DNA of 44,604 bases, taken from assembly GCA_048213135.1 (NCBI GenBank), contig PS015129.1, positions 237,090 to 281,693 of the forward strand. The letters run 5' to 3'. Of the stretch, positions 6,791-44,604 are shown piece by piece. Source of the DNA: Reclinomonas americana ATCC 50394. Taxonomy: Eukaryota. Numbering within the stretch: the first letter of the stretch is position 1; each line of letters begins with the position of its first letter. The notes under the pieces are model-generated. The model saw only the letters and a list, made by a program, of their open reading frames with translations, ran no database searches and was not told where the DNA came from. A program made the position numbers and the translations under genes.

Positions 6791-9700
6791 TCACCTGCGC
6801 TCGCCCGCTGCTCGCATGTCACCCGTGCTGCTATTCGTGGAGGTGCCGGTGGTCGACTCGTCGAGCGACGAGCCGCCCCCGGTGACTTTGACTGCCGGCG
6901 TGTTGACGGCGAGCGCTTCACGGCTGCTACTGCGGCTATGTGCGCGCGATCCCGCTCCCGTGTTGCTGCTGTTGCTGCCGCCGCTGGCGGCAAGAAGGCT
7001 ATCGCGGCCGGCGCCACCTTCGCCAGAGCTTGAGCGACTGAAATGGGGGAGGAAGGTGAGGGGGGTTGTGAAGCACACACAGACGCCGCGGCATACACAC
7101 ACCGGTGGTGATGGACGCGACGGTGCTCTGTCGATCCAGCGGTCTGGTGAGAGCGCGCACACGCGGGGTGCTCGCCGACACGCATCGGTCGCTTGCCGAG
7201 GCGCAGCAAGAACATGATGGCACAGCCGACAATCACAGCAATGGTGAAACCGAGGGCGAAAGGGTAATTGCCGCGGCCAGAGTACACCAGCAGGCCCACC
7301 ACGCACACCGTGCCGCGGAGGCACAGAATGAGGAATTCACCAATGGCGTGGCCACAGCTGCGGAACGCAGTGGGAAACAAGCAAGAGGCCCACTGTCTTC
7401 CAACACCCTCACCTGATACGCGTTCCGGTCGGACTGTTGCGCTGAGCGCGCAGTCGTCCCGCCTCGAACGGGAACATGACGTCGACCAGCAAGTACCACA
7501 CCAGCAGCACAGCGCGCACCGCCATGGACTGATCGGGCGGCCGTCCAGATGAGGAGACCACTGCCGAGTGGTGCTGTGCCACCAGCGGGCCGCCCACTGC
7601 CGGCACATCGTCGCGCGAAGAGACGCGACGCATACCGGGCTCCGCGAGTGCGGCGTTGGCTGGAGCAGCGGCGGCAGCAGCGACTGGAGCGCTCGACGAG
7701 GCACCAATGCCGGCGCCGCTCTGCTCCACGTCGTCGGACTCAGACTCGGTGTAGGATTCCGAGTCTGAGTCGGAATCGCGGCGCTCCGGGTGCTCCGCCA
7801 CCCACTTGTCCCAGTCGCCTGGCGAACTGGAGCCGGCCGCGAACTCCTGGTTGTTGCCATCCGACTGCGACCCGGAGGAATTCAGGAGGGCCGACGTGAA
7901 GAAGATGGAGAGCTGGAGCGAGCCAATGACCACGTTGATCTGCAGCCAGTGGAGAAGAGTGAGAAGGAAGAGGAGGATGGGGCTAGTACGGCATTGACAA
8001 AACGCAACAGCCAGTGGAAACACGTAGAATCCAATCGACAGATGCACAGAGGTCAGCGCAATGCTAAACACGGCGTGCATGCCAATCTCCCAGTTGCTGA
8101 ATCCGCTGGCACCACACAGACCCGTCCCCGTCAGCTGCAGCGCGCAGGTGAGTGTGAGGGAGCACAAACGAGACGGACGGTGGAGACAGCAAACGTCCAC
8201 GCACCACCACATGGCGCACGAGCCAGTTCAAGCTCGACGACATCATGATGCCAATGTGCAAGATCGAGAAGATGACCGAGATGACAAAGAGCGGCGTCAC
8301 CGTTTCGCGGCGGAAGATCATGTACATTTGCAGGCACAGCATCGCTTGCACGGCTGCGGGGAGGAAATGAGAATGGGAATGACAAGGAACAGCAGACAGA
8401 TGGGTAGGCGCTCACCACAAATGGTGGTCACCATGACCCACGCCGACGGGGTGGTGATCTCGGCATCGCGCTGAAACTCGTACAGCTCGGAGCCGATGCC
8501 GCGCGGGTCCATCAGACCCTCGCTGCTCTTCTCGGACGACATGAGAGCTTTGCGCGGTCCGCGACGGTGAAAGTCGCGAATGTCCAGCACCGTGCGGTAG
8601 AGTGGAATCACACCGCCGAGGGCCACTGCGTCAGAGGAGGACAGAAGGGTGGATGGTTCAGAGAAGGAGAAGATGTGTACGCATAAGAGGAAGAGTGCGA
8701 CTCTTCAATTCAAGAGGTCAGGTCAAAGTGCACGTGGCATTCCCACGCCCCGAGATTGCACAACTCTTCTCTTCAAGAAGGCAAATGAAACAACACGCTG
8801 AATTCCCACACCCCACTATCCAACAACCAAGAACAGAGGGGATATTGCGACTCTTCTCTTCAAGAGGGCAAGCGTTGCAATCCACACAGAAGGTGAATGA
8901 GTATGGCAGAAGAGGGGGAGACTGCAACTCTCCTCTTCAAGAGGGCAAGCCATAGAACACGTTACAATCCACACACCCCGAGATTGCACAACTCTTCTCT
9001 TCAAGAAGGCAAGTCAAACAACACGCTGAATCCCCACGCCCACTATCCAACAACGGTGCAGAACCAAGGAGATGAATGGGAGAATGCAACTCTTCTCTTC
9101 AAGAGGGCAAGCCATAGAACACGCTACAATCCACACACCCCACTATCCAACAACGATGCAGAACCAAGGCAGAAGAGGGGATATTGCGATTCTTCTCTTC
9201 AAGAGGGCAAGCGTTGCAATCCACACAAAAGGTGAATGAGTATGGCAGAAGAGGGGGAGACTGCAACTCTCCTCTTCAAGAGGGCAAGCCATAGAACACG
9301 TTACAATCCACACACCCCACTATCCAACAACGATGCAAAACTAAGGCAGGAGAATGGGAGATTGCAACTCTCCTCTGAGAGGGCAAGCCACAGAGCACGG
9401 TGCCCCACAATTGTGCAAGCGAGGGGAGCCTCGGCAAACAAGACAGGGAACAGAGAACAAGCAAGTCAAAGAACTGCACCCTACGACTATGGTAGACAAA
9501 GAGTTGATTGCCACTCTTCTCCCCAAGTACCCCTTCCTCCCCTGCTGTCTGCATCCCCCGCGTACGCAACAAAAGAAGAGCAACCAGTCGGAACAGCGCA
9601 GATTGCGCACGTACGCCACGGTGACAATGAGCGGCCCGAGGTACGCAAAGCCAATGAACGAGAGCGCCACGCCAAACGGCGCCTTGTCGGGATCCTCAAA

Positions 9701-9875
9701 GAACGTCGCCGTCACCCACACATCGGTGACAAAGTTGCCGACGCACACAAACACCGTCAGCAGCGACCAGAAGTAGAGGCCTGCGCGCGCGCGAGAAATT
9801 CTCGAAATGTGAGAGGAATATACTGTCGTTATTGATTAGGGAGGGTGAGAATATACCGCTAACGAGTGAGAACAT
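6791..9875 (-). CDS. Multipass membrane protein, possibly XK-related (XKR scramblase-like)
   Basis: Spliced exons: MFSLVSGLYFWSLLTVFVCVGNFVTDVWVTATFF...; LALGGVIPLYRTVL...; AVQAMLCLQMYMIFRRETVTPLFVISVIFSILHIG; an acidic Ser-rich loop; further TM exons; a Ser/Gly-rich tail ending at TGA 6793-6791. 'TDxxV' in TM1 and 'LxLQxY' resemble XK motifs, but the usual E-S-x-P-Q is not conserved. Confidence 0.55.
8690..9530 (+). repeat. Degenerate ~99-bp tandem array (ankyrin-like relic) inside the ~940-bp intron of the XK-like gene
   Basis: The core (t/c)tcttcaaga(g/a)ggcaa recurs at about 8772, 8859, 8936, 9000, 9098, 9198 and 9275, with variants near 8710 and 9375. Full-length spacings are 98-100 bp. 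The block 8841-8980 is repeated almost exactly at 9180-9320. Confidence 0.85.
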
Positions 9876-10559
9876 GCAGCGAAAAAATGGAGAGAGGCAG
9901 AGAGAGAAGGGGGGAAGCAGAGAAGGAGCAGAGTGTGTGCGTGGGAGAGAGAGTGCCCAGAGAGACCAGAGAGAATGTGTGTGTGAGAAGAAAACAGACA
10001 AGCACACTTTCTATGAATGAGGTGGGAAGACTAAGTGAGCGCACACGCGCGCATGCATGAGTGCGCATGTGAGATGCATCGCACACAGAGAGAGAGCGCG
10101 CATGAGAATGAGAGAGTGCGCGCGTGAGTGTGTTCAGTCAGTCAAACCTCACTTCGCGAAACCCTTCACTTATCTCCCCTCTTCTCACTCTCCCCTCGCC
10201 CCTCGCCCTCTTCCACTCACCCACAGGGAACCAACACGCCTCCATTCCCTTTCCATACGACACAAAGCAGCATTCGCGACACGAGAAACACTCGACCAAA
10301 CACCGACCATTTGCACAGGAGAATGCCACTCGCGAGTCACCTCGTTGCCCACTGCCACCACCACCACTGTGCGCACGATGATTGTGACTGTGATGGTGGC
10401 CGTGATGACTGTGGTGGTGAGTGTGATTGTTGTTCTTTGCTGCTGTTGGTGTTGCTGCTGTTGACACTGGTGTTGGTGATGAGGTGGCAGCCGATGCAGC
10501 GGCCTCCAGGTCGCTGGTGGAGCGACGATGGGCGGAGGCCTGCATCTCTCCTGTCGCAA

Positions 10560-14124: not shown

Positions 14125-17100
14125 ATGGAAGAGCGCGCGCAGGAGTGGTCCACACAACTGCGTCACGCTGCGCACGACTGTGGCACACGCGGTCTGCGCA
14201 ATGCTGCGCGTTGGTGCGTGAAAGAGAGAGAGACAAAAACAGTGAGAGTGTGAACAACTCACACACACTCAACACACACAGGGCGGTGCAAGTGCTGCAC
14301 GATGTGAGCACACAGTTTCCCTCATGTCGACCATCTGCTGCTGCACCAGTCGCGCAAGAGGAAGTTGCGCGACACAGTGTGTGTGTGTGAGAGAGGGAGA
14401 GAGTGAATGCTCACTGGTGCAATAGGCGAGTGATTTCTGGGCGGATTATGACACATACGCGCTGGCCTTGTCGTACTTTGAGGGCGCAGAACTGCGTCGC
14501 TGTTCATATAGTCTCCGCCAGTGTCGTTCACAGAAGGTGAGTGCGTACTGAAGGAAGGGATCTGTGACTTCCTTGTCTCCCTCCTCTCTCTCTCTCTCTT
14601 TCTCTCTTTCTCTTGTCTCTCCCTCTCTTGTTTGCCACTCACAGCTCTTCTTCTCCTCCTTCTCCTCCTCCTCTCTCCCTCTCTCATGTTTGTCACTCAC
14701 GGCTCTTCTCACCTGTCTCCCTCTCTTTCCTCTCTTCTCTGTCTACNNNNNNNNNNNNNNNNNNNNNNNNNNNNNNNNNNNNNNNNNNNNNNNNNNNNNN
14801 NNNNNNNNNNNNNNNNNNNNNNNNNNNNNNNNNNNNNNNNNNNNNNNNNNNNNNNNNNNNNNNNNNNNNNNNNNNNNNNNNNNNNNNNNNNNNNNNNNNN
14901 NNNNNNNNNNNNNNNNNNNNNNNNNNNNNNNNNNNNNNNNNNNNNNNNNNNNNNNNNNNNNNNNNNNNNNNNNNNNNNNNNNNNNNNNNNNNNNNNNNNN
15001 NNNNNNNNNNNNNNNNNNNNNNNNNNNNNNNNNNNNNNNNNNNNNNNNNNNNNNNNNNNNNNNNNTCTCCTCCTCCTCTTCTTCTTCTCCTTCTTCTCCT
15101 TCTTGTTCTTCTTCTTCTCCTTCTTCTCTTCCTCATTCTTCTTCTCCTTCTCCTTCTTCTTCTCTTGCTCTTTCTCTCTTCCTTGCCAATCACTTCTCCT
15201 CCTTCCAGGCTCGCTTCCTGCGCCGCTACTCGCGCTACTTGGCTGGCGAGGAGCGTGCTCGACAGGAGCAAACGGAGCGCCACTCAGGTGTCCTCGCTGG
15301 CGTGCACGAGCCGAATCGAGAGCTGCAGGAGCTGGCCAATGATTTGGACTCGGATGCGAAAGGTCTTGGAGTGTGTGTGAGAGAGAAAGGACTGAGAGGC
15401 GGGCAGCACTCACGCGCATCTCGCAGCCGGCGACTTGGACGCTTTCAACTCGTACCTGTACGGCGTTGTACTATCGCGCCTGGCCGAGTACGAACGAGCC
15501 GCGCGCTGCCTGTGCACGGCGCTGCAAATGTATCCTTGTTTGTGGTCGGCGTTTGTCGAGTTGTCGACACTCGTGTCGCAACAGCGCGTGCATGTGCGTT
15601 GCTCTCCCGTGCGCCAGCTCTGTTTCCCACCTCTCATTGTCGCGCGTCGCACAGTTCGCCACACTGGATTTCGGTGCCGTGCGCCAGCACTGGGCATTTC
15701 AGTATTTTATCGCGCACCTGAGCGTCGAGCTGCAGCAGCCGCGCGATGCGTTGCTGGCCGTGCAGCAGCTCATGGCGCCGGAGGAAGGTCCACCGTCGGC
15801 GGAGACGCAGTTGTTGGCGACATCGGCGCTGACGTTGTTGAGGCCACGGGCGACGGCGCACTCGATTTTGCGAGGTGAGTGCGCATCACGCCAATACTTC
15901 CGTTTCCCGTGACTCATGCTGCTGTGCCGCAGATTTTGAGGCCAGCAACGAGTGCTTTGAGGAGTTGGTGATTCGCGATCCGTTCGCCGTGGAGCTCATG
16001 GACATGTATTCGAACATTCTTTACGTGCGCGAGGAACGCAGTGCCCTGGCGCGACTGGCGCACGCGTGTCACGCCGCGAACAAGTACCGCCCGGAGACGT
16101 GCTGTGTGGTCGGCAACTACTATTCGCTGCGGAGACAACACCAGAAGGCACTGGTGTACCTGCGCCGCGCGCTGCAAATGGATCCCACGTTGCGTCTCTC
16201 CCTTTTGTTTGGTGACGCAATGGGTTGGTTGAGTCTCACTGACACTTTTCTGCAGCTACGTGTCGGCGTGGACACTGATGGGCCACGAGTACATTGAGCT
16301 GAAGAACATTGGTGCCGCCATCTACGTGTATCGCAAGGCTGTTGGTATGTGTGTGTGTGTGCATCAAGGCCAGCTCGTGTCTCCCTTGCTCACTCACTAT
16401 TGTGCACTCTCCCACAGACATCAACGTGCGGGACTACCGCGCCTGGTACGGCCTGGGTCAGACGTACGAACTGCTGCACATGCCTCTGTATGCCCTGTAC
16501 TACTACCGCAAGGCTACCACGTTGAGACCAGACGACTCGCGCATGTGGTGTGCGCTCGGCGGCTGCTACGAGGAATTGCGTCGATTCGGCGAGGCGTTGG
16601 AATGCTATCGGCGCGCCCATCCGGTATCGCACGTGGTGATGGCGCTACCGTCGCAACCGTCTGCGGCGGCCGCGCCGTCAGCCTCGTCCACGTCGCGCAC
16701 GACGCCGGCTGTGGGAGTGGATTCGTCGGCCAATGAGGACGCAGGAGGCAAGGAGTCGCCGACTGCGGGCGCAGCCAGCGCAGCCGCTGGGGGAGCAACA
16801 GGGGCAGCGCGCGAAGAGGACGGGCTGGATGACTCGAAACCCGACAATTGGCTGCGCATGTACGATCCCGTGGCGCTGGCCAAGCAAGCGGCGTTGTATC
16901 GGCAGCTGAACGACTTGAACACGGCTGCGCACTGGTACACAAAGCTGGTGTTCGTGCAGAGACGACTGCAGGGTGACGCCGCGGTCGAGCCACCGATTCT
17001 TATGTTCCTGGCCCAGTACTACCACATGTGCGGTGAGAACGACGAGGCGATCAGCTACTGCATGCAGCTGCTGGACACCGGAGCGCCAGTTGCGTGCTGT

Positions 17101-17308
17101 AATGCGATGCGCCACCTGATTCATACTCTCAATGTCGTCGACCATCTGCACGCAGGAAAAGGAGGAGGCCAAGGCACTGCTGCGCGACATTCGCAGCCAA
17201 CAGAGCGCGACCAATCGACTGCCACTGGCGTCGCCGGCGCCACCGTTTGTGCGAGACGACCTCGAGTCGCCAGGCTTCATGTCGCCGGCATGGCCCTCAG
17301 GCACGTGA
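14125..17308 (+). CDS. CDC23: Anaphase-promoting complex subunit 8 (Cdc23), TPR protein
   Basis: [140 protein letters not shown]. Stop TGA 17306-17308. Confidence 0.96.
14570..15208 (+). repeat. Polypyrimidine (CT/CTT)n tract with a gap, in a CDC23 intron
   Basis: Visible CT-rich runs on either side of Ns 14747-15064. Confidence 0.9.
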
Positions 17309-20191: not shown

Positions 20192-21862
20192 TCACACAGT
20201 GGACGAACCGCGACCGGGCTTCTTTGGACGCTGCTGCATGGCGGCTTGAGCGGCGGCGTGGACGTTCGAGTTGCGGCTCTGTGGGTGCAGGCGATCGAGA
20301 ATGTTGTCGGGTGACAAGCCGTCGGCGTCGGTGGCTTCCATCTGCGCACAGCACACAAGCACTGTGTCAGTCGATGGGAAGCAAGTGAGTTCAGCGCGTG
20401 TGTGCGCAACATTGAGTGCCACCGGCGTGGAGGCGATGCGCTCGATCTCGGCCACGAGGCCGGCCTTGGCAGAGCTGGCCAGCATCTTCTGGCGCACTGG
20501 CACGTCGTCCGGGCAGACGTAAATCACCACTGCGAGCGACAAGTGGTGTGAGAGAGCGGGAAGACAGAGAGTGAGGGCCAGATGGCGCACTCACCCAGTG
20601 GCGACTCGTTGCTGCCCTCAAACTGGTGCGTGTAGCGCACGACAAAGAATGACGGCCGGCCAGCAGGCATGTGGTTCGGCAGCTCCTCCGGTCCCACCGC
20701 TGCACGGCGTCCGTCAATGTTGATGACTTCGTTGTCGAACACCTGCAACGAAAGTGGGCACCATAGGCGAAGGCGGATCGCAACAAGAAAGAGGAGCGCA
20801 CCAGCTTGACCAGGTTGCCCGAGGATGGATCCGACGCCACGCTCTCCACGGCCGCCACGGCCTCGCTGGAGAGCGGGAAGGCGAGTCCGGAGCCAGCCGA
20901 GGTGGCCACGGGACCCGACGAGCTGGCGCCTGAGAGCATGGCGTTCTGCAAGCAGAAGTGAGTGAGCTGCGTGAGCATTTCTATCGCCTGTCTCTCTCTC
21001 TCACACACACACCTCGGCACGAATCGAGCGCTCCTCCTCCGACATCAACGCATTGCGATGCTCGGCCGTCACCGGCGACACATCCTCCGGCGCCAACGAC
21101 TGCACGTCGTTGACGGTGATCCAGTGCCACAGCGCCGGTCCAAGAACGCGCTTCACCGGCTCCACGGATGAGGAGTAGATCTGTGTGTGGGGGGGTGAGA
21201 AGTGAGAGGGAGGAGAGGAGAGGAGAGGAGAGGAGAGGAGAGGAGAGGAGAGGAGAGGAGAGGAGAGGAGAGGAGAGGAGAGGAGAGGAGAGGAGAGGGA
21301 GGAGAGGGAGAGGAGAGGAGAGGAAAGGAGATGAACGGAGAGGGAGGAAAGGGAGGAGAGGGAGGAGAGGGAAGAGAGGGAGGAGAGGGAGGAGAGGAGA
21401 GGAGAGGAGAGGAGGACGTAGAGCAGTGGCGAAGGACACCAAGGAAGAGAGTCGCGAAGAAGGTGAGAAGGAAACACGAAAGGAGAGCAATGGAGAAGCA
21501 ACGCGCACGGGGGACGGAGCAGTGAAGAAGAAGCAGAGGGGAAGAACGAGGAGACGATCGCACGATCGCACGTTTGAAGACAAAGAGAGTGAGAGAGACA
21601 AACCATCTTCTGCCGCACATGCGCCGAATCGGGAATGTACGTCACGAGCACCCACCGCTCTCCAGAGGCACTGGCACGCAACAAAAAGTAGCTCGACGCA
21701 CCTAAAGAAGAACAAGAAGAAAAACACGAAAAATTGTTCCGATCACAGTCAGCTCAAACAAAATGCATGTCTGATGATGATCGATCACTCATGATAAAAT
21801 GCATGTCGCCGTGTGAGCATGAGAGCAAGAGAGTGCAACTGCAAAAAGCACACTTTGCATGT

Positions 21863-21917
<55 letters not shown>

Positions 21918-24824: not shown

Positions 24825-24861
<37 letters not shown>

Positions 24862-26475: not shown

Positions 26476-28547
26476 ATGGGCAAGCGCCCCGCCCCACGCC
26501 ACCCCGCCTCCGACACCATGGCCGCCTTTTGCATCAACACCACCGGCCTCATTGCCCGTCTGCGTGAGAAGCGTCGTGAGCAGCTGGCGCAGGTGAAGCA
26601 CCACCACCACCACCACAGTGCCTTCCTCCCCTATCACCTCACTTCGCCACCCTGCAGCTCCGCTCCCAGGACTCGTCAGGCGGCAATGGTGCCGCAAGTG
26701 CAGCGGCAGCTGCGGCCGCCGCCGCCGCCGCCCTCCCGCACATGGAGGACAAGACGCCCGAGGTGACGCCCTCCACTCCCGGCGGGTCCGACAATATCTT
26801 CCAGACCGAGTTGCGCGAGGAGGAGCGCACGCTGATTGAGAAGAAGCTGGAGGCTAATCGCCGTCTGCACGATGCGTTTGCGCGCAAGGCACAGCGCGAG
26901 AAGATTCAGCGTGTGCGAGAGGCACTGAGGTGTGTGTCAAGCTAGAGACGCACTGTGTGTGCGTGACTTCACTCTCTCACATTCCAACTCCCTGTCACCT
27001 ACAGCTGGCCCTCCGACGACGAAATTCTGGTCGCGCTGCGCATGTGTCGCGAGGATGAAGGCGAAGTGCTGCAGAAAATGNNNNNNNNNNNNNNNNNNNN
27101 NNNNNNNNNNNNNNNNNNNNNNNNNNNNNNNNNNNNNNNNNNNNNNNNNNNNNNNNNNNNNNNNNNNNNNNNNNNNNNNNNNNNNNNNNNNNNNNNNNNN
27201 NNNNNNNNNNNNNNNNNNNNNNNNNNNNNNNNNNNNNNNNNNNNNNNNNNNNNNNNNNNNNNNNNNNNNNNNNNNNNNNNNNNNNNNNNNNNNNNNNNNN
27301 NNNNNNNNNNNNNNNNNNNNNNNNNNNNNNNNNNNNNNNNNNNNNNNNNNNNNNNNNNNNNNNNNNNNNNNNNNNNNNNNNNNNNNNNNNNNNNNNNNNN
27401 NNNNNNNNNNNNNNNNNNNNNNNNNNNNNNNNNNNNNNNNNNNNNNNNNNNNNNNNNNNNNNNNNNNNNNNNNNNNNNNNNNNNNNNNNNNNNNNNNNNN
27501 NNNNNNNNNNNNNNNNNNNNNNNNNNNNNNNNNNNNNNNNNNNNNNNNNNNNNNNNNNNNNNNNNNNNNNNNNNNNNNNNNNNNNNNNNNNNNNNNNNNN
27601 NNNNNNNNNNNNNNNNNNNNNNNNNNNNNNNNNNNNNNNNNNNNNNNNNNNNNNNNNNNNNNNNNNNNNNNNNNNNNNNNNNNNNNNNNNNNNNNNNNNN
27701 NNNNNNNNNNNNNNNNNNNNNNNNNNNNNNNNNNNNNNNNNNNNNNNNNNNNNNNNNNNNNNNNNNNNNNNNNNNNNNNNNNNNNNNNNNNNNNNNNNNN
27801 NNNNNNNNNNNNNNNNNNNNNNNNNNNNNNNNNNNNNNNNNNNNNNNNNNNNNNNNNNNNNNNNNNNNNNNNNNNNNNNNNNNNNNNNNNNNNNNNNNNN
27901 NNNNNNNNNNNNNNNNNNNGCAGACGATGTGTCTTCGGAGAACTCGGACGGGTGTGTTGTGTCCCACCACTCCTTTTTCTACTCCCGTTGTTGGTCTCAT
28001 CCCGCCCCCTTCTGGCATGGCAGCTCCGACTCGGATGCCGCGTACCGACCTCACAAGCGTGTCTCTGGGTCGATGTTGTCGGCTCCTGGACAGATGCCGG
28101 TTATCGACTCGTATATGACCACATTGGGCAGTGCGGCGTGGCGTGCATTCTGCGAAGGATTCCTGGACCCCATCACACTCGACCCGGTGGTGAAGCCGGC
28201 GCTCTCCCCGCAGGGCTTTGTTATGGGGTTGCGTTGCCGCTGGTGTCTCGTATCTTTTTTCTTCCTTCTCCGCGCGTGCTCATTTGTCACACAGTTACGA
28301 CACGTGGTTGAGCGTGCTGATGCACTCGGAGCCGAAGAACACGTGCCCCTACTCGCAGCGTCGGGTGACCAAGCGCGAGCTGGTCATCCTCACTCCCGAC
28401 AACTTTGACGACTACCGTGATCGGATTGTCACTTGGCACTACGACGAGGCCACTGGCAAGGGCGAGCAGCAAGAGGTGAAGATGGCTGCGCCGGCCGAGA
28501 AGCCCACACAGGAGCAGAGTATCGTGGAGGGCGAGGAGGCCGAGTGA
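26476..28547 (+). CDS. Protein with an N-terminal coiled coil, a CUE/UBA-like helix and a C-terminal U-box-like domain; middle part in a gap
   Basis: SDDEILVALRMCREDEGEVLQKM (CUE/UBA-like). EGFLDPITLDPVVKPALSPQGFVMGYDTWLSVL...KNTCPYSQRRVTKRELVILT (U-box/RING-like). Stop TGA 28545-28547. The 5' end may extend upstream. Confidence 0.75.
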
Positions 28548-28614: not shown

Positions 28615-31600
28615 TCACCGACCACCGCGTGTCATGCGCACGAAATGACCAAAGGCACGCAGCAGGGTCTCCACAAACAGTAACATGCCCTCCTCGTCGG
28701 CCTCCGACGACGCATGCAGCAAGATGCGACGCTCAAAGTGCGGATACTGCAGCGGGCCGGTGGTGTACGGGTTGCGCAAGGCCAGCGTCAGCGTATCACC
28801 GAGCACACTAATGTTGGACACATCTGCGACCGTGACTGTGAGTCGACGGACATCGGTGACCACAAACAAGCGCAGCAGCCGCAACTGCTGAATTCATCCT
28901 CGTCCTCCATGTGGTTATCTTCCTTGCGCACACGCAACAGACGACGATCCGTCACCACAAACCATGAATTGGAGTTGGCAAAGTCGCAGTGGAACAAATA
29001 CTGCGCATGGCGGCATGAGAGAGAGATAGAGAGAGAGGAAGGATGCGACAAAAAATCAGTGAGTCTGTCTCACCTCATCGTCGCGGAACTTGCCGTCTCT
29101 CGTAAACTGCAGAATCAGTCGCCCCTCGGCCATCATGTCCGAGTACGGCTGCCAAACACACAACAGAGGTCAGCAACACGGCACAATTACGCCAGAAGCA
29201 TCATCCATAGCAGCCACCAACCAGCAGCACGCCCGATTTATCAAAGCCGCGCGGATAGCGCTCGCGTCGCACCTCGTCGCCGCGCCGGGAACCCATGGTG
29301 AAGGTATTGCCGAAGCCCTCGGTGGTCTTCGACACAAAGTCAATGGCACCCGCCACTGGCTTAACGACCACTGCAAATATGAATGGCACGTCAGCCGAAG
29401 CACACGACTCACATGAAAAACTGCGTAAACAAACCGCCCAGCAATCCGGTGCCAATTCCACGCAGCAATCCGAGTGGACCATCTCGCCGCGCTCCACGAA
29501 TCGGATCCACCTGTGTCGTTGAGGCGAACAGTCAAGGAAAAGGCAGGCAGTGCACGAACATGAACCCCTTCCTGTCTCCTACGGCCCCTTCCCGTCCCCT
29601 CTCTTCTCATTTCAATGGCACAACGCACCACCACACCGCTGATGCCGTGAACCTGCGTAGTAACGGTGAAATGAGTCGACGAATCCTTGACGAATAATAC
29701 CCTCCTCACCCCCATCACTTCACGAACCAGTCCACTGCCGAAACTCATGCCACCCTGTGCCAGTCCTTCACCAATGTGCCGCGGCCGCGCTCGCTGATAG
29801 TCCAGACGCCGTGCAATGTACTCGGGGTCCATGGACAGCATGGAAATGCCTGCTCCAAAATTTAGTATGAGACCTCACCCTCTGCGGTCACTCGCCGGCT
29901 TACCTCTGCCCAGATTGCCGGTGATTTTGCCGACAGTGGAAAACGCTCCACGCATGCTATGCCGCACGAGATTGAAGGCGCCCGAGGCGAGACCCGCACC
30001 AAACTGCGATGGACTGCGCACACCACCTCCGCCACTGCCACTGCCCGAACTGGAGAAAAGCGTGCGCACTTGACCGACAGAGCGCAACATGCTGATTGGG
30101 TTGGCGAGAATGTCAAGCGAGCCAATGATCTTGTAGAACTGGCCGGTGACCTCGCCCTGCAATCCTCTGCAACGTGAGGATGGCGGAGAAGACCGGCATC
30201 CTGTGCATCCTGTCCCCTGCGTANNNNNNNNNNNNNNNNNNNNNNNNNNNNNNNNNNNNNNNNNNNNNNNNNNNNNNNNNNNNNNNNNNNNNNNNNNNNN
30301 NNNNNNNNNNNNNNNNNNNNNNNNNNNNNNNNNNNNNNNNNNNNNNNNNNNNNNNNNNNNNNNNNNNNNNNNNNNNNNNNNNNNNNNNNNNNNNNNNNNN
30401 NNNNNNNNNNNNNNNNNNNNNNNNNNNNNNNNNNNNNNNNNNNNNNNNNNNNNNNNNNNNNNNNNNNNNNNNNNNNNNNNNNNNNNNNNNNNNNNNNNNN
30501 NNNNNNNNNNNNNNNNNNNNNNNNNNNNNNNNNNNNNNNNNNNNNNNNNNNNNNNNNNNNNNNNNNNNNNNNNNNNNNNNNNNNNNNNNNNNNNNNNNNN
30601 NNNNNNNNNNNNNNNNNNNNNNNNNNNNNNNNNNNNNNNNNNNNNNNNNNNNNNNNNNNNNNNNNNNNNNNNNNNNNNNNNNNNNNNNNNNNNNNNNNNN
30701 NNNNNNNNNNNNNNNNNNNNNNNNNNNNNNNNNNNNNNNNNNNNNNNNNNNNNNNNNNNNNNNNNNNNNNNNNNNNNNNNNNNNNNNNNNNNNNNNNNNN
30801 NNNNNNNNNNNNNNNNNNNNNNNNNNNNNNNNNCCTTGTACTTGGCCAGCACTCGCTGCCAGAATCCCTGTGCCGTGTCGTGAATGTCGGTTGCCTGCCA
30901 GCCGGTGAACTTGAAGTGACAGCGCTGCAGGTTTTTGAAGAAACTGCCCGCCAGCGAGATAAGTGGATTCGAGGCACTGGAGAGACTAATGTCGCCAGCA
31001 AACGACAAGTACAGCGCCAGCGGCTGAATGTCCATCTCGCGAATGAACAGTCGTTGTGGGCGCTGAGGGAGTGGCCCGCACCGCTGTGTGAGGAGCAACG
31101 TGCTGTTCACACAAAGCAGCGCACCAAAGTCAGTGTTCCGCTCCATGGTTCAGCGAGCAAAGCATGTGCGCAACTTGGCCAGATCAACATCGCCGGTACC
31201 GTGTGCGACACCAGCGGCTGCGAGGCGCGCATCGACACCACCATCGCCTGTCGACTTGGCCACCGCATCGATTGTCTCCAGAGCCACATTCAGCAGGCGC
31301 TCGTCCAGGCGCACTTCGAGCTCTTGTACCGAGCAGCCGACGTAATCCAACGCCAGCGAGTTGCTCGTCGATTCTGCGACGCACACATGAGATGCCGCAC
31401 ACGAGCGATCACTGGCCGCCCAACGCGCACCTTTCATGTTGCGGACAAGGGCAGCGTGCACCACGGGCCGATTGGGGTTGAGTGAGTGCGCGCACGGTCG
31501 CAGCGCCACCGGGTGGATGCAGTCGTACAGCATGTTGTCGATCTGAATGTCGGCCACAAAGAACTCGGCACTCTGCGCCCGCAGCGACGACGACCACTGG

Positions 31601-34600
31601 AACACCGGCGACTTGACCGACAGCAGTAACACTTCCTGCGATAGTCGTGCGGATGTGAGTATACATACGTGACGTGTCGTGAACAGCAATGCAAGCAAAT
31701 GCAACTTGAGGCACTTGGTTCACGAGCGACACGCGTAGAACCGGCAGGCAGCAGGCAAACTCCACACTCGACACATACACATCCGAGTCCACCTCCTCCT
31801 CGGCAGCACGATTGGCCAAGGCGTCAAGCGACTGCTCGTGCACAGAGTACGTGAGTGGCAGCACACAGGGGAGGATGGATGCAGAGCAGACTGACTGACT
31901 CACCGGTGCTCGTCGGTGTCTCTCGACAACCAGCACGCGATGCCCGCCACGGTTCAACATGATGGCATAGGCGGCGCCCTGAGCTGGTTGCGGGTCTCCG
32001 TCACTGCCAGTAATGCGCACACATTGCGGCACCTGGTCTGTGTCCACCTCTGCTCGATCGTCGGTCAGCGACACGCCGAGCTTGTGCGATGGCGACGAAG
32101 GGTCGAAGCAGAATGGCAAGCGACAGTGCGGCGGCAGTGACCACACCGCGTCCGGACCCTAGCAGTTGCAGCGGCGGCGAGTGAGCATCATCATTCAGCT
32201 TGTGACATACAAGCACACGTACCTCCTCGGCAATAAAGAGACGCGAACTCGTGTCATTCTCGATCAAGAGATCCGGCCGCAGTTCGTTGACGTCGTAATC
32301 CACAAAGCTGATGAATGTGGTGGAGGCCGACTCATAAATCACCACGCGCATCATGGCGTAGCCGCCACCGGCCAGCGAGCGGAACTTGAGCACAAAGTCG
32401 GACGACGAGCGGTCGACAGCAAACGGCGTGCTCCTGTGCGATGCACACATGATGAATGACTTCATAGTGTGACAGGGGTATGCTCACACACTGCTGGCGA
32501 ACCAGTCAAACGGTGGTGCTCCGTCGACCACCAGCCGACACTGCAGCAGCTGGTGCGCGGGCTCGTCCGTCATCCACTGCAAATCACACTGCGGGGAGGA
32601 GCCGTCGAGGACCACCAGCTGCGTGCAAGCATGGAACATGAGAGCTGGAACACAAGCAGGAGTCGGCGAGTCGAAAAAGTCACCTCCTCGGCAAACTGCT
32701 GTCGCACTTGCACAACTCCGCTCGACTGATTCACAAGTACGTGTGCAGAGCGCAGCGTCACCAAGCGCGTTCTCGTAAACTGACAAATCAAATGAGTGCA
32801 CAAAGGTCATGCCGATCTCACTCATCCCCCTCCCTCTCCCATCGTCCACTCACCAGCCCAGTGGCCATGGTCACCGAGCACGACACTCGCACCTTGGCCG
32901 CATGTGTCTCACACTCCAACATTCCAGAGGTTCTGTGCGCAAGGGAAAACATGTCAATCACCAGTCCCACGTGCCTCCGCCACTCGTTCGCACGCACCCA
33001 ATGGCATCAATGGAGAACGGCGACGAAAACGAGTCGCCACCGTCGATACTGACGGCAATCGTGTGTCCGAGTGCCGCGTCATGGAACGAAAAGGGAATCA
33101 CCGCAGTCGGTTCAGTGCAGCCCGCTGGTGTGGCATGCATCGGGTCGTTTTGACCGGCCGCCAAGTCACCACCACCACGCGTAACAATGAGCGGCAGGTC
33201 ACATCGGGTCACAATCCAATGGCTCACATAGAGCGTGCACAGTGGCACAAGTGACGTGGAGGAATCTTCGTATGCCAGCAGCACGTCCAGTCGGCGCCCG
33301 GCTCGGTCGACAATGGTGTAGCGCGAATCGAGACTGTTGCCCTGCGGATCAAACACGCATGCGCCGTGATGTGTCACGTGCCAGCGGCCAGTGGTTGGTG
33401 TGGCCAGAAGGAACAGTGGCTGCTCAGCGGCACTGTACAGTTCGGCACGTGCTCCGCCGTCGATGGCACTCTCGTACACTGCATGCTGAGCAGCCGGTGA
33501 ACCCGCCATCACCGTCACGTCCATCCACGACGGCATGGCATTGACCAGCACCATCAGCGGCGATACCACCAGACGATAGGTCCTGCGACAAAGGATCACG
33601 TGAGAAGTACCTACGGGAGGCCACACTGGGAGGGGACGGGTGTGCAACTTGAACTCCAAGATCGAATCGAGAAGATCGGTGGACGAGTGCTGTCTCACCA
33701 CACTGCGCACCGTGAGGTGCGACTGCTCGCCCCACCGCTGCTGGTACACGGCCGAGAACTGCGAGACAGAAGGAGGGGGTGAGCGACAAGTGACAGTCAC
33801 TCTTCTGTGTCCTGAATGGCGCGACGTGACTGGGCGTTTGCGTTTGATCGCCTGTCGCAGAGCGCACATCTCCGAGAACTCAAGCGCACCCTCCTTGCAC
33901 AGAGAAAAGTCGTCGGCGCAGCGCTCTACCGGCACACACAGTCTACCACCCGGCGCTACGTAGTTTTGCACGCCGTGCATTAGCAACACAGCGACCACGT
34001 AACACATGCGAGCACACGAAACGAATTGCTTCCGGAGTGAAGCGATCAGGACGACCGCGCGCACGCAGGCAGACGCGCAACGGGTGCGAGGTCGCATTGT
34101 AGACCTCAATTGGTGACTTCAGTTCCACAATACGCTCGCCCTTGCTGCTGGTCGTCGACTGATTGATACCACACGGAAACTCTCAGATCACACGAGATCA
34201 GTCGGCTTCACCCGCGGCGACGCAACTTCGACAATCAGTGCACGGCCATTGGTCCCAAGAATGTGCTTGTGGACGACACCATTCTTGCGAATGGACATGG
34301 GTCCAATCACTGCCGGCTCCGTGTCCGGGAAGGCGGCGTGCACAGTGAGCTCGAACTGCGTCTCCGCCTGCAAGAAAAAACGCGCACAAAATATCAGTCT
34401 CTCTCTCTTTCTCATCTTCTCATCGTAATCTTGGACACTCAACGTCGAGCCCTGTCGCGCGCAAATCCACCGCCATCTGCTTCCTGTCGTCCGGGTCGAC
34501 CACAACGTATTCACGATCCTCGCCGCGACCGACTCGCGACACCACCAGCGGTGCGCCAGTCAAGTTCAACAGCGTGAATGAGTGGCACGTCGGTGGGTGC

Positions 34601-37600: not shown

Positions 37601-40600
37601 AGCAGGTCCACGATTCGCCTCTCCAAGTGCAACGCAAACGGCGACAGTGATGCATGCACGTCCAGGTGTTGCGCTTGCGAAAGCAGCAATGACCTGAACG
37701 ACGATAGTGTAATGAGCAACACCAACATCTTTCGTCACAAGTGCAGCGACAAAAAGCCTCACCGCGACACGTCCATTGTCAGGTGCACATTCATCACCAC
37801 AGCCACGCGCTCCGACAGTGTCGCCATCGCAGCGTCAACATGCACATTGTTGAGACGTAGTCGCCACATCTCCACCATCGTGCCATCTCCAGCAGCCTTC
37901 AGCATCAGTCAGACGGTGCGGTGTGTGAGCATGGAGCACATCAAGAACACATCAACTGTCGCGAGCTCACCGATAATGCAATGGTGTTTTCGGCAGAAAA
38001 GTCGCCGAGGCGCACATGAATGCTGTCGGTTCCGGCCTCGCACGGCACTTCGATCACCGGCGCGGCCATGGTGACNNNNNNNNNNNNNNNNNNNNNNNNN
38101 NNNNNNNNNNNNNNNNNNNNNNNNNNNNNNNNNNNNNNNNNNNNNNNNNNNNNNNNNNNNNNNNNNNNNNNNNNNNNNNNNNNNNNNNNNNNNNNNNNNN
38201 NNNNNNNNNNNNNNNNNNNNNNNNNNNNNNNNNNNNNNNNNNNNNNNNNNNNNNNNNNAAGTCGCCGAGGCGCACAGTGAATGCTGTCGGTTCCGGCCTC
38301 GCACGGCACTTCGATCACCGGCGCGGCCATGGTGACACGCATGAGCCAGTAGGGTCGCGAGCTGCCGCTGAGAGAGGAAAGCACTGCAGACGATTCGGCC
38401 GCTGTGGTGTCGACCATCACGCTAGGAACTGCACGACTGCGCGACAGCGGCGGCTGCTCCCCCAACGAGCGTGCATCCATCAGCACTCGCATGGTGTGAG
38501 TCCACGCTGCTCCACAGTACGAATGCAAGCGCTCCAATACGCTGGCGACCAGCAGCACGCGAAGGGAGCGAATGCGTGCCACCAGATTGCCTTGTGCAGC
38601 CGGCACACCAGCAAGTGGAACGGGCAGACGGTCGTTGTCGGTGTCGAAATGCAAGACAATAAACGGCTGCGCACGATCGGTATCCTCCCCCGACACGTCC
38701 TCCACACTGAGAAGCGTGCGCAGGCGATTGTCGCCGACTGCCACCACCGATTGCACAACCACACTGCCGAGAGATGCTCTGTGCACCACGCCACGTGCAT
38801 ATAAAGTGAGCGATCTCGACGACGAGTGTACTGTAGAACATGTGAACGCAACTCAAGCTGACGAAGGGAACCATGCTGAAGCGTGGCCTCGGCAGCCATT
38901 GATGACAATGTACACACGGCTAGCTGCACATCCTCCTCCACACAGTGCACTGTGAACTGTGATAGCTCCAATCGAACAGAATGCACCGCGGGCATTAGAA
39001 CAGACGCCGCCGCCGCCTGTTTCTTCGACAAACGCAGTGACGGCTCTGCTGATCACACACACACGCAACAGCATCAGTAGCCGACGCACGGAGTGACTCG
39101 ACAGCGTGTCGTGCCACACACCTCGTTTAGATGCTGCTGCATCGGCAGCGGCCACATGCCGCTGGTACAGCATGCCATGTCGCGCACAGTGCAGCAGACG
39201 GCGCGTGATTTCCAGATTGGTCGGTGGATGCAAGCGTGTGGTCACGCCCGACACTCGTACGTGCAATGTGCTTGCCACAGGACCCTGGCGTGTGACATAA
39301 AGCGATGAGCGACGAAGGAAGAAGAAGAGAAAGACGTAGGCGATGACCAATGTATACACACCGACGTATGTGTCACGTATTGCACACGAAGTACATGATG
39401 GTCGTCGCCATGTGCCACAGCCTCCACGCTGTGCGACATTTTCTCTGTGTCAAGGTGAGTGAGCAACGACAACGCGACAGCTATTAGTGACCGAAGTGTC
39501 AGAACAAACCGTCGGCACATCGCGCGCGGTGCAAGAGATCAAAGACGTGGGCGGACTGCACGTCGAGCCGAGCGGAAAACGTGCGGCTGGTTCCGCTCAC
39601 ATCAAGGGACAAGTTATCTGCCGATCCCACAACCAGCTGTCGTGTCTCCGATTCTACACCAGGTGCTCGTGAGAACCACACAACATCAGTAGTATCCTCG
39701 CACGAAAGATCACCTTGAACGAGCACGACAATGGTTCCGCAGGAGAACTTGGTCTGATAGCGGACCTGAGCGAGAGAGAGATATACACACACACTGTCAG
39801 CAGCAGACGGAGCATGCTCACATGGCTGGTGCACGCTACCTGCTCAACGAGTGATCGTGATGAAGTCGACAGTGACGAAGAAGAAGAAGGCGTCGCCCCA
39901 CCAGACGCATCCACAGCAGCAGCAGCCGCCGACGATGTGCGGGTCTCCGTGGCCATCAGGAAGCTGTGCAGGTGGACAACGAGTGAGAGACAATCCAACA
40001 TGCGCACACGCGCGCGCGCGTTCATCATGCGCAACTCGATGCTGGTCTCGGTGTCGTCGACAGCAGAGGGTGAGCGCCCGAGTTGCGACCACAACTCCAG
40101 TGGAGCCGCAGCGCATGACAGCGCAGACAGCCAACGCTGTCGCTCATCAGCGTTGGCAGTGCAAAGTCGCAACGCGCGCGACTCAACACCGAGTGCCGAC
40201 GATGGCCAGGTGATGCACAGAATCCAATCGTCACCGGAGGACTCCTCAGCAACGCATTGCACCGACGGATCCAAAGTGAAGCACTCCTCAGCGTTGCGGG
40301 CGTGACTGCGCGCAATAAATCAAAGCGTGATGAGAGGAGAGAAGCGGATGATGACATGAAGCATTGCCGTTGCGCAACGGTCCGGTGTAAATTGACAGCA
40401 CATTCCGTCGCAGTGCACAGTAGCGGCGATGCCATATTTGCAGCAAGGGCTGATATACGTCCACCACCCCGGCGTGCGATACCTCGTCGAAAGTCGATAA
40501 ATCACCTGCGCACACTCCTCATGTAAATGGCTGCGACTTCTACCAACTGTCGCGACAGACNNNNNNNNNNNNNNNNNNNNAGGACCTGGCGTTCGGTGCA

Positions 40601-41572: not shown

Positions 41573-42798
41573 TTACCCCAGCGGGTCAAACACGGCGGTC
41601 GTGCCCGAAATGATGCGCGGGATACCGTAGTTGCCAGTGGCAAGGCGATGACCCGATCCAGGCGCATGCCACCAAGCGCGATTGCGCGGCAGCCACTGGT
41701 ACAGAGCCTGGTCGGTGCCGATGGCCCACACAATGTCGTCGTTTCCGACTGCAATGTCATTGCACGAGCCCGACAGCTCCTGCCACGGCTCGCCGAAGCC
41801 CAGTGCCGACCACACGCCCGTGTCAGTGGCACAGAACCACACTTGACCCTTGCGGCCGACGGAAACACGCTTGGCATTCTTGCTGGAGAGCAGCCACTGC
41901 TTGTCGGTGCGCGACATGAACATCAGGTTGCCGTTCTGGCGCACCATCCACAACGAGTTGTCACCACCGACAGCAATGTGCTGGGCGTCGCTGGCAAACT
42001 CTTTCTTCATTGAGCGCCACAGCTCAGCAGCGTTGCCGGTGCCTGGGCGCGAGAAGCAGTGAGCAAGTGTGGCGCAAGAAGCAGCAAGACGACAGCGTGT
42101 GCTCACCCTTGCCGCAGCCGGGCTCCACGCTGCGCGAGATGGTGCCGTCCACGTTCGTGGTCCAGATCATGCCGTCGGGGCCGACAGCAATGGAAGCGGC
42201 CGAACCGTGAGGAATGCCTCGCCACGCCGTGTTGAACTCCTCCCACACGTACACGTTGCGGTCGGTGCCGATGGTGTACAGAGAGTTTTGTGCGCCACCA
42301 ATCGCAATGTCCAGTGCCGTGCCCGGCAGCTGGCGCCACTTGATGTCGGGGCCGACGCCAAATCGACGCATGATGGCGCACTCGTCGGCGTCGAGGGCGC
42401 TGCCGGAGTGGACCGCAGACTGACTGCGCATGGGGTGGAAGGAGGAGTGAGAGATCCCCACACAGAGTCAAAATAAAATCGACGCAGCGCCAAAACGCAA
42501 CGCAAAAGTGCTGGCCTCTGACAGCACGGTGTCGTAGCTGATCGCTTCAGCGGCACACATGTGTGCATCCTGCTCACTCGAGACGAATGTCGTCTGCGCA
42601 GTGACTGTAGCGATGTATGTGTATGTGTGTGTGTGTGTGCGTGTGCGTGCGTGAGAAAGCGGGAGGATGAAAAGCGACTACAGAAACGCACTCGTACTCA
42701 CCAAAGGCGCGGCAGACCGGCGGCAGCTGCGAATCGCCACACACCGCAAGCAGGGCGAGTGACAACAAGACGACGGCAAAGAGGGTCACGCGCGACAT
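41573..42798 (-). CDS. Secreted tectonin/tachylectin-1-like beta-propeller lectin
   Basis: Signal peptide MSRVTLFAVVLLSLALLAVCG, four exons in frame, and about six repeats of type W..LPG....IAVG.D..VW (KWRQLPGTALDIAIGG, AWRGIPHGSAASIAVGPDGMIW, PWQELSGSCNDIAVGNDDIVWAIG). Confidence 0.85.
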
Positions 42799-43102: not shown

Positions 43103-43240
43103 ATGGAATATCTGTTCTACACTGTGGCTGCGGTGCTGACCATTGCAATCATCTGGGTCTTTATCAAATTCGCGGCACCCAGCGGCCCGAGTGACCCGAA
43201 AAAGAACACAAACCCAGGTGCGTGTGTGTGCACTGAGGCG

Positions 43241-43272
<32 letters not shown>

Positions 43273-44604
43273 AACAGTTGACAGCGACATGATAATTCAT
43301 TCTTGCGTGCATGCATGCATGCAGAGCGCGGCTGGTCGACTTCGCAAGACAAGTCGAAGAAGAAGGGCAAACAGAGTGCAAGTGCTGAAGAAGCCTCGTC
43401 GTCATCATCGTCCTCTTCCACTGCTGCTGCAGCGGGCGGGAAGAAGGCGCCGGCCGGAAAGGGTACCAAGGCGAGTGTATGTGTGATACAGAGAGAATGA
43501 GCACAATGCTTACCGCCTTGTGTCTCACATTCTTCGGTCACATGACACAGGTCAAGAGGCACGTGCAGGCACCGGACCCAGTGGAGGATGCGCACTTCTA
43601 CGCCTCGCTGCGTGGTGGGCATCAGGATGACATTGTGTATGCGGCGATATCGCCCGGCGGATCGTTGCGTGTGTTGTTGGGGTGTCGCTCTCCTCTCGTG
43701 CTCACGTGCAAGTGGCTGGCAGGTTCGTTGTCACGGTGTCGCGCGATCGCACCGGCCGCTTCTTCCCGATGGACGAGCTGCTGCCGCGAGGCAACTCTAC
43801 TCGGCTGGAGGCGAAGCCAGAGTTGCGTGACGAGAGAAGAGGAGAGCAAAGAAGGGAGAAGTGTGCTCATTCTCTCCCGCTCGCAGGGCCGCCAAGTTCA
43901 CCATGGACGACCGCCCCACGTGCGGTGCGTTGTGCTCTGACGACCGTGTGCTCATCCTCGCCGTGGAGGACAAGCCAGAGATTCAGCTGTGGGGCATTCG
44001 TGAAAATGTGCGTACGTCTTGTCGCCACCTCCCGCATTCTTCTCTCTCACCGCGATGCCGTTCACAGGTGTTTGCCAAGTCGAAGCGCCAGCCTGCGGAG
44101 CTCGTGAAGAAGCTCATTGTTGCGTGGGTGTCTGTCCTCTGTCTGCATGCCACACAGTCCTCTCGAGTCTCAATGATGTGGTGCAGCGACCGTCGGAGTT
44201 CCGTCTCGCCCCGCCGGTGGTGGCAGTGGGTATCTCGGGCGATCGTGCGGTGGCCATGGCAGTGGCGCGTGATGAGGTGGTGACGCTGTGGGATGTGCGC
44301 AGTGGCGACGTGGTGCACTCGTTCACCACCAAATCAGGTACGAGCTGCTGTCAATTCCCACGCAACCACGAGGAAGCGCTCATACTGTCGACGTTGCTGC
44401 AGGCGTGCCTCGCGGTGCCACAATGACACTCGATGGCGCTCTCTTCTCGGTCGTCTGCGCCATGCCGGATCTGCCAGTGTTCCACGTGGTGCGCAAAGCC
44501 AATGCCTTCCACAGCTGCGACCGAGTCATGGTGTTGCCGGGTGATCAGGTTTGTTGTGCTCCACGTCGATGGTGCGATTGTGCACTCCTGCTGCCAGCGC
44601 TCAC
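43103..44604 (+). CDS. TBL2: TBL2-like N-terminally anchored WD40 protein; 3' end outside the window
   Basis: N-terminal TM segment MEYLFYTVAAVLTIAIIWVFIKF, a Lys-rich linker, then HFYASLRGGHQDDIVYAAISPGGSFVVTVSRDRT, DDRPTCGAL and VTLWDVRSGDVVHSF. Confidence 0.72.

Follow-up and report, generated by a model that had tools for sequence, protein, structure and literature searches.

An earlier note on a stretch of the Reclinomonas americana ATCC 50394 genome (assembly GCA_048213135.1, contig PS015129.1, positions 237,090 to 281,693 of the forward strand; the whole stretch of 44,604 bases is called the window here, and all coordinates below are counted within it) raised the question of whether the hexamer GTTGCG serves as a 5' splice site and, if so, how such an atypical donor would be recognized. 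Working from the DNA letters, that note had read GTTGCG as the usual donor displaced by one base, had placed it at roughly 1 in 10 introns, and had suggested shifted pairing with U1 small nuclear RNA (snRNA) or variant U1/U6 snRNAs or specificity factors. Our computational analysis confirmed the observation, which on the evidence of the sequence is stronger than was originally stated: GTTGCG appears as a distinct and frequent donor class of short GT-AG introns across most genes of the window. Our preferred reading, to which we assign a probability of roughly 0.55, is that GTTGCG, usually in the form GTTGCGT(G), truly and frequently serves such introns as a 5' splice site and would be recognized one nucleotide off register.

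Short introns that begin with GTTGCG

The window belongs to a draft scaffold of an intron-rich eukaryote and holds ten N gaps, with 58% G+C outside them. Its introns are short, mostly 55 to 80 nucleotides (nt) as read in the CDC23, twinfilin, tectonin, and WD-repeat genes (the CDC23 gene has at least six within 2.1 kb), and they share a 3' module consisting of CTCA[C/T/A], sometimes CTGA[C/T], about 10 to 30 nt ahead of a YAG acceptor. This module gave us a handle on introns that is independent both of donors and of coding sequence.

GTTGCG occurs 47 times over both strands, an ordinary frequency for a hexamer (rank 306), and 16 of these copies sit 55 to 80 nt upstream of a CTCA[ACT]..YAG module, versus 6.7% of all positions. 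This 5.1-fold excess (p = 3e-8) ranks second among 3,388 hexamers; the sole hexamer above it, GTGTGT, is inflated by (GT)n runs, and the same test gave 10/60 for GTGAGT and 10/54 for GTGCGT. With a looser version of the test, the count was 19 of 47 for GTTGCG versus a background of 16.6%. The heptamer GTTGCGT is present in 20 copies, and all six on the plus strand are intron starts in gene models. When related motifs in the window were put to the test, donor behavior was unclear or absent for GTCGCG, GTAGCG, GTGGCG, GTTGCT, GTTGCC, and GTTGTG.

Reading frames led to the same donor. For every site at which a GT is followed by the module, the best frame was picked independently on each flank, and we asked whether the two frames fit the exact removal of GT...YAG, for which the chance expectation is 1/3; the codon table was derived solely from sequence lying over 220 nt away from every GTTGC[GA]. 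The flanks were compatible at 15 of the 16 GTTGCG sites (P = 7.7e-7), a count that did not change with another codon table, as compared with 10/11 for GTGAGT as a positive control and 220/627 (35%) for all other GT sites with a module. We also built a donor-agnostic gene finder, a dynamic-programming procedure in which any GT may be a donor and the score depends on nothing but codon usage, the 3' module, and length; GTTGCG was the donor hexamer it picked most often (8 of 70 introns). When the 120 most frequent GT hexamers were withheld one at a time, the optimum suffered most from the loss of GTTGCG (a drop of 14.5, rank 1), as compared with 8.3 for GTGTGT and 6.4 for GTGAGT.

The class could in principle be an artifact, produced either by chance motifs together with mis-drawn exon borders or by an assembly error that repeatedly inserts a T into GTGCGT. 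The gene models are indeed noisy, the scaffold is a draft with 10 N gaps, and a thresholded version of the knock-out (gene fragments scoring at least 10) placed GTTGCG outside the top 25 drops. However, that version is non-monotonic, and on the true objective GTTGCG ranks first; module association, frame fit, knock-out, and the homolog spacing described below are mutually independent and all significant; and an added T would neither remove the G at −1 nor shift intron phases. We consider an artifact very unlikely.

In everything but the donor, these introns resemble their neighbors. They are 59 to 78 nt long, with a CTCAY or CTGAY branch motif and a YAG acceptor; CTCA lies within the last 40 nt in 13/16 of them versus 35/47 of the other introns, median lengths are 67.5 and 67 nt, respectively, and interior composition is also alike. 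As is characteristic of U2-type GT-AG introns, removal from GT to AG restores the frame (15/16, with two junctions exact against homologs), and the branch motif and acceptor are those of the other introns. Because length, interior composition, and 3' signals are shared by both classes, a common spliceosome is the economical assumption, and GTTGCG introns are most likely removed by the same major spliceosome as the canonical ones.

The alternative GT-AG and GC-AG pairs that can be enumerated within 90 nt of these sites are too many to decide between without homologs, and for two junctions in the CDC23/APC8 gene homologs are plentiful. The spliced product was aligned to 60 homologs (a slash marks a splice junction here and below). 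At the junction formed by the donor at 16189, which the earlier note had read as MDPT/YVSAW, the spacing is identical in 60/60 homologs. Among 80 metagenome CDC23 loci, 72 run uninterrupted through this position with the same spacing, and for the remaining 8 no single frame contained the motif; an intron at the position was seen in 0 of the 72 loci with a readable motif. At 17089, in an alignment from which columns occupied by three or fewer rows had been dropped, the join is collinear with 41 of the 42 homologs displayed, P0040 being a fragment; by reading, no other phase-0 GT brings back the conserved C-terminal frame of CDC23. The best CDC23 matches are 60 to 77% identical over the tetratricopeptide repeat (TPR) core only, and the metagenome loci reach at most 63%; none is near-identical. 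The homologs fix the two donors to the residue.

These junctions also bear on the reading that the introns are of the GC-AG kind, with the true donor three bases downstream (GTT/GCGT...) and the exonic GTT conserved. Because the GC at +4/+5 shares the phase of the GT at every site, reading frames by themselves do not discriminate between the two. At 16189, however, the GC donor 3 nt downstream, which is the only other close in-phase option, adds a residue seen in 0/60 homologs, and the spacing in the 72 uninterrupted metagenome loci is likewise the shorter one. At 17089, it is the GT product that lines up with the displayed homologs, the GC product being one residue longer. The exon thus does not end before the GC at either testable junction. 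An exonic GTT would moreover be conserved in all three codon phases without a coding rationale, and the predicted U1 duplex of the GC donor is no better (−0.6 kcal/mol). We give this reading almost no credence.

At the remaining sites, all 12 GTTGCG coordinates named in the earlier note carry the hexamer on the strand it gave, and GTTGCA is present at 31705(−). At 28228, 42501, 43664, 43822, 44119, and 8008, a CTCAY...YAG module follows at 59 to 78 nt and the independently chosen frames are compatible; the GTTGCA site at 31705 is likewise compatible as a candidate intron of 70 nt. The donor at 23320 joins two parts of a CrcB domain (Pfam CRCB positions 2 to 44, E = 2.2e-6, and 49 to 98, E = 9.4e-8), and that at 40378 joins two parts of a PH domain, both weakly matched (Pfam PH 17 to 34, E = 0.042, and 54 to 101, E = 0.012). 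For 20410, the upstream exon matches Cofilin_ADF positions 75 to 106 of 125 (E = 4.8e-6) and two parses chose the donor, but in the donor-agnostic parse an in-phase GTGGCA at 20422, 12 nt farther upstream, took its place while the acceptor stayed unchanged. The site at 9570(−) is tentative: its upstream exon has a weak XK-related match (Pfam, E = 9e-4), but no acceptor lies within 130 nt, by reading the site is frame-compatible only as an intron of about 944 nt ending at 8627, and Pfam returned nothing relevant for the downstream exons of the XK-like gene, with one chance-level match.

Several further homology searches were uninformative at the junctions. A Protein Data Bank (PDB) search with the two twinfilin exons gave weak ADF/cofilin matches for one and chance matches for the other, the VPS13 exon had only two weak matches among protein representatives, and the tectonin exon had no match among longer proteins. 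Pfam recognized no family in the exons flanking 43664, upstream of 28228, or downstream of 28885, and only chance-level matches downstream of 28228.

The share of GTTGCG among short introns was 8/60 in the donor-agnostic parse, 15/80 in a parse with donor scores taken from the module association, and 16/65 in a parse favoring it, which over-calls and whose 4 further calls longer than 130 nt are dubious. Overall, the class thus makes up 13 to 25% of the short introns in the window, and the earlier estimate of 1 in 10 was too low. By hand, we counted 17 well-formed GTTGCG cases and two GTTGCA cases. A position-independent donor model, the comparison that the earlier note had proposed for the whole genome, leads one to expect 0.53 GTTGCG donors among 65 introns of the window, and 16 were observed. 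Members of the class were found in the membrane gene at 2 to 4 kb, the XK-like, CDC23, twinfilin-like, and CrcB genes, the gene at 28 kb, and the VPS13-like, tectonin, and WD-repeat genes. We regard these introns as shown in silico, at this frequency and with boundaries known modulo 3, or to the residue at two sites.

A one-base offset and its possible mechanism

The other donors of the window mostly read G/GT(G)N(G)(T), as the earlier note had described them, with G at +3 in 33 and at +5 in 45 of 47 introns, +6 occupied by T (26) or C (14), and +4 mixed (A 15, C 17, T 13). Position +7 is G in 31/47, giving GTGAGTG and GTGCGTG. Position by position, GTTGCG equals the canonical (A)G/GTGCGT(G) shifted by one base: the bases at −1 of the variant (A 7, C 5, T 3, G 1) parallel canonical −2 (A in 20/47), the G at +1 stands where the canonical donor has its G at −1, TGCGT occupies +3 to +7 instead of +2 to +6, and +7 (T 11, C 4) parallels canonical +6. 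The near loss of G at −1, which the earlier note had recognized, is marked: 1/16 variant donors, namely that at 28228, have it versus 39/47 of the other donors (Fisher 5e-8), the latter count coming from a parse whose donor matrix includes −1. In the donor-agnostic parse, which never looks at −1 and whose counts are therefore uncontaminated, the figures are 1/8 for the variant and 23/26 for canonical donors.

Intron phase is displaced in parallel. Phases 0, 1, and 2 are represented by 5, 1, and 10 GTTGCG introns versus 24, 17, and 6 others (Fisher p = 2.5e-4 for phase 2), and by 2, 1, and 5 versus 15, 9, and 2 in the agnostic parse (p = 0.0035). The GTTGCG phases are consistent with the canonical distribution once it is moved by one (p = 0.59); without that move, it is rejected (p = 1e-8). 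In the same in silico sense as the introns themselves, the offset in composition and in phase is shown, and donor and exonic consensus are both displaced by one base, as at a shifted-register site.

A skewed phase distribution could instead mirror the insertion-site preference of introners, the GTTGCG introns being relics of a burst of elements whose ends carried GTTGCGT and which hold no separately recognized signal; a uniform 5' end and a narrow length range would also fit such an origin. An all-against-all comparison of the 65 introns in this window, however, yielded only 11- to 16-nt matches, of low complexity or due to shared signals and no commoner within the class, and thus no copy similarity beyond splice signals. 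Nor do these introns differ from the others in length, interior composition, or 3' module, and a burst in the past would leave present donor recognition unexplained. We judge this origin quite unlikely. Intron-internal pairing was no more frequent in the class either, with complements of the motif in 2/16 variant versus 10/47 other introns.

Under our preferred reading, the motif would be the commonest canonical donor, (A)G/GTGCGT(G), displaced by one base to (A)/GTTGCGT(G), with cleavage directly before the GT of GTTGCG. Initial recognition and cleavage would then be offset from each other by one nucleotide: U1 may pair in a shifted register, with G at +1 standing in for G at −1, or with the extra U at +3 bulged, and the GU would set the cleavage point afterwards. 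We infer these snRNA steps from the shape of the offset. A site with a bulge at +3 would be expected to retain G at −1, which is not what the counts above show, and the loss of this G appears to fit a shifted register better than a bulged one.

Several observations weigh against this reading. Nearest-neighbor duplex energies were computed with a standard U1 5' end in three exon contexts; the duplex of GUUGCGUG with this U1 amounts to only −0.3 to −2.2 kcal/mol in any register, as compared with −8.6 for GUGCGUG and −13.0 for GUGAGUG, although for one context, CA/GUUGCGUG, the most stable predicted duplex is that of the shifted register. Although GUUGAGUG would pair better (−4.9 kcal/mol), GTTGAGT is used at most twice. 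The class is rigid, with at least 16 GTTGCG donors, 2 GTTGCA, 0 to 2 GTTGAG, and 0 or 1 GTTGTG, despite the mixed canonical +4, and a plain thermodynamic register shift does not predict such rigidity. Further, the base preferences at −1 seem, by an informal estimate, too weak to produce the phase displacement. Among the 16 module-associated copies, two probably do not mark introns: that at 14364(+) has incompatible flank frames and lies outside gene models, and that at 40082(+) is antisense to a gene, its compatible frames presumably being due to chance. The motif is also insufficient on its own, since sense exonic copies of GTTGCGTG at 21682(−) and 28938(−) are apparently unused. To these points are added the contaminated canonical count at −1 and an evidence base of one 44.6-kb window, analyst-built gene models, and a weak codon model.

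Because pairing is weak and the class rigid, a serious rival is that a dedicated recognizer reads the class, either a variant U1 whose 5' end complements GUUGCGU or a protein that recognizes the sequence specifically, so that two donor dialects share one branch motif and 3' splice site. Very weak pairing to standard U1 in all registers, the rigid heptamer with its better-pairing relative GTTGAGT nearly absent, and the large size of the class (13 to 25% of short introns) all speak for it. On the other hand, the one-base offset at −1, +7, and +8 together with the phase displacement is expected if the same U1 reads both classes and would otherwise be coincidental; Rfam at gathering thresholds found no snRNA gene, or any other RNA gene, within the 44.6 kb of the window; and to our knowledge, the U1 5' end is almost invariant across eukaryotes. 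We see a dedicated recognizer as possible, if less probable than the recognition by a shifted register that we prefer. The more specific picture of a "two-dialect" major spliceosome, in which a variant U1, with or without a change in U6, would serve a fifth of the introns while the rest of the machinery is common, appears doubtful.

Sites and neighboring features

Most of the gene names used by the earlier note are backed by Pfam and homolog searches. Homologs and Pfam both support CDC23/APC8, and Pfam supports the enoyl-CoA hydratase, the ADF-H domain of the twinfilin-like gene, and the CrcB-domain gene; the VPS13-like gene has a VPS13_N start and a weak match to the VPS13 adaptor-binding domain, and the tectonin gene has a Tectonin domain (E = 2.9e-8) in an exon later than the 42501 intron. 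The names U-box and TBL2 received no confirmation from Pfam. The GTTGCG and GTTGCA sites are listed in Table 1.

Table 1. GTTGCG and GTTGCA donors, candidate donors, and apparently unused exonic copies in the window
Coordinates	Strand	Feature	Gene context and evidence	Earlier note
16189..16255	+	GTTGCGT intron, 67 nt, phase 2	CDC23; homolog spacing, module, frame tests	
17089..17155	+	GTTGCGT intron, 67 nt, phase 0	CDC23; homolog collinearity	
28228..28294	+	GTTGCGT intron, 67 nt, phase 2	Gene named U-box in the earlier note; CTCAT module, compatible flanks, agnostic parse	
43664..43722	+	GTTGCGT intron, 59 nt, phase 2	WD-repeat gene (TBL2 in the earlier note); module and phase tests	
43822..43886	+	GTTGCGT intron, 65 nt, phase 2	WD-repeat gene; agnostic parse, module and phase tests	
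44119..44186	+	GTTGCGT intron, 68 nt, phase 0	WD-repeat gene; module and phase tests, module-scored parse	
2709..2775	−	GTTGCGT intron, 67 nt, phase 2	Multi-pass membrane gene; agnostic parse, module and phase tests	Not listed
7940..8008	−	GTTGCGT intron, 69 nt, phase 0	XK-related-like gene; in frame, read-through stays open; agnostic parse, module and phase tests	
20342..20410	−	GTTGCGC intron, 69 nt, phase 0	Twinfilin-like gene; chosen in two donor-scored parses	
23256..23320	−	GTTGCGT intron, 65 nt, phase 2	Inside CrcB domain; agnostic parse, phase test	
28824..28885	−	GTTGCGG intron, 62 nt, phase 1	VPS13-like gene, C-terminal part; agnostic parse, module and phase tests	Not listed
31103..31174	−	GTTGCGC intron, 72 nt, phase 2	CTGAC branch	Not listed
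34159..34226	−	GTTGCGT intron, 68 nt, phase 0	CTGAT branch; module-scored parse	Not listed
38779..38852	−	GTTGCGT intron, 74 nt, phase 2	Outside automatic gene models; module and phase tests	Not listed
39964..40035	−	GTTGCGC candidate intron, 72 nt	In frame, stop-free; frame does not force removal	Not listed
40306..40378	−	GTTGCGC intron, 73 nt, phase 2	Inside PH domain	
42424..42501	−	GTTGCGT intron, 78 nt, phase 2	Near N-terminus of tectonin-domain gene	
31636..31705	−	GTTGCA intron candidate, 70 nt, phase 0	CTCAC module, compatible flanks	
33583..33648	−	GTTGCA intron candidate, 66 nt, phase 2	Module/flank test and two parses; not in the earlier note	
38957..39069	−	Possible GTTGCGT intron, 113 nt	CTAAT branch; motif reading alone	Not listed
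35679		Possible GTTGCG donor	Chosen in two parses	Not listed
8627..9570	−	Candidate GTTGCGT intron, ~944 nt	After XK-related-like exon; contains ~100-nt tandem repeat	
21675..21682	−	Exonic sense GTTGCGTG	Codes FLLRA in first ADF-H exon; apparently not a donor; not in the earlier note	
28931..28938	−	Exonic sense GTTGCGTG	Within exon matching VPS13_C; apparently not a donor; not in the earlier note	

At some sites the parses disagree on the borders. In-phase GTT alternatives lie 9 to 18 nt downstream of 43664, one of which was taken by the donor-agnostic parse; one parse kept the donor at 31174 and chose an acceptor at 112 nt instead; two parses took an acceptor at 102 nt for 42501; and the automatic parses picked other donors with the same acceptor as 31705. 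The exon upstream of 28885 has a weak VPS13_C match (E = 0.026). Retention of the sequence at 39964 to 40035(−) would add 24 residues and not break the protein, so that this may be an optional intron or none. Between the first exon of the XK-related-like gene and the next, at 8700 to 9400(−), a tandem repeat of about 100 nt is present in 2.3 copies according to Tandem Repeats Finder (TRF), with more degenerate copies visible by eye; if 9570 is a donor, its intron of about 944 nt contrasts with the introns of about 65 nt found otherwise.

The 40378 intron divides the PH domain at 40038 to 40518(−). About 0.6 kb upstream of this domain, across a gap of 20 N, the same strand has a VPS13_N-type start at 41122 to 41232. 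A PH domain so near the N-terminus is unusual for the layout of VPS13, and the two may represent two genes or an unusual chorein-family architecture. At 23099 to 24196(−), two CrcB-like halves follow each other in tandem on one strand (fragments 23099 to 23715 and 23721 to 24196), which we take to be the layout of eukaryotic two-domain fluoride exporters (FEX). The frame at 21757 to 22947(−), at 397 codons the longest without a stop in that part of the window, has no Pfam match and ends in (CA)n; it looks repetitive and unlike protein, and a gene here is improbable.

Long CT/GA-rich and AGA microsatellites occur at 21204 to 21414(−) and 19323 to 19439, one of them within the intron that follows the first ADF-H exon, a second between enoyl-CoA hydratase exons, beside the N gap at 18825 to 19121. 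The hydratase gene seems to span this gap, with an N-terminal exon near 19476 to 19649 and the remainder at 17499 to 18306. At the start of the window, 1 to 793(+), two tandem arrays adjoin, the first with about 26 copies of a 15-nt unit and the second with about 29 copies of a 12/48-nt unit; together they form an open frame with LLLAT repeats and extreme third-position G+C that received the gene finder's top score; this is probably a minisatellite and not a gene.

Known systems and the meaning of a displaced donor

U12-type introns have the donor RTATCCTT and the branch motif TCCTTAAC. Like them, the GTTGCG introns are a minority alongside the major class and have a donor of unusual rigidity. 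We rejected an assignment to the U12 type because RTATCCTT and TCCTTAAC were not seen, and the donor GTTGCG is combined with a CTCAY branch and YAG acceptor as in the canonical introns.

Shifted-register 5' splice sites were reportedly treated by Roca and Krainer, whom Tan et al. 2016 cite. The closest parallel appears to be with such sites. In Tan et al. 2016 (PMC4856993), mammalian shifted-register 5' splice sites are described in which every base pair between the splice site and U1 moves by one position; the share of human 5' splice sites with any validated noncanonical register is estimated there at 1.5%. Like those sites, the GTTGCG donors have GU followed by an extra U, the remaining consensus one base downstream, and apparent cleavage at the GU. 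They differ in that one rigid heptamer accounts for 13 to 25% of the short introns of the window, whereas the human registers together make up the 1.5%. A second difference is that the human examples are strongly complementary to U1 in their shifted register; for GUUGCGU, pairing with standard U1 is poor whichever register is taken. Figure 1C of the same paper illustrates 5' splice sites in which one nucleotide is bulged at +3 (or +2), and GT-T-GCGT is readable as GTGCGT with a looped-out U, G at +1 and U at +2 still being paired; unlike these sites, for which the bulge model favors G at −1, the class here has nearly lost it.

A second parallel is offered by Ostreococcus lucimarinus, whose introns outside chromosome 2 have rigid atypical GTGCGTG donors (Irimia and Roy 2008, PMC2483917). 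That paper raises divergent snRNAs or two kinds of spliceosome, and it contains no GTTG string. The window resembles Ostreococcus in its canonical partner motif GTGCGTG, its short introns, and its strong branch motif; it differs in that Ostreococcus is intron-poor with the branch ACTGAC, whereas the window is intron-rich with CTCAY. A full-text literature search with splice terms returned, in the portions of text it covered, no use of GTTGCG or GUUGCG as a splice donor.

What appears to be new, judging from the DNA of this window, is that a donor of a noncanonical register, a rare exception in human genes, would here be the hexamer most often used, and that this goes together with rigidity and a displacement of frame. 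We know of no previous description of a one-base displacement of intron phase, which links the register of a splice site to the coding frame. Gene finders trained on a single donor matrix would mis-splice many genes of this genome, because a position-independent model expects 0.5 such donors where 16 were seen. If our preferred reading is true, Reclinomonas americana would offer a natural system for studying how cleavage is fixed independently of U1 pairing, and its GTTGCG donors would also show how far the near-invariant recognition by U1 and U6 can drift.

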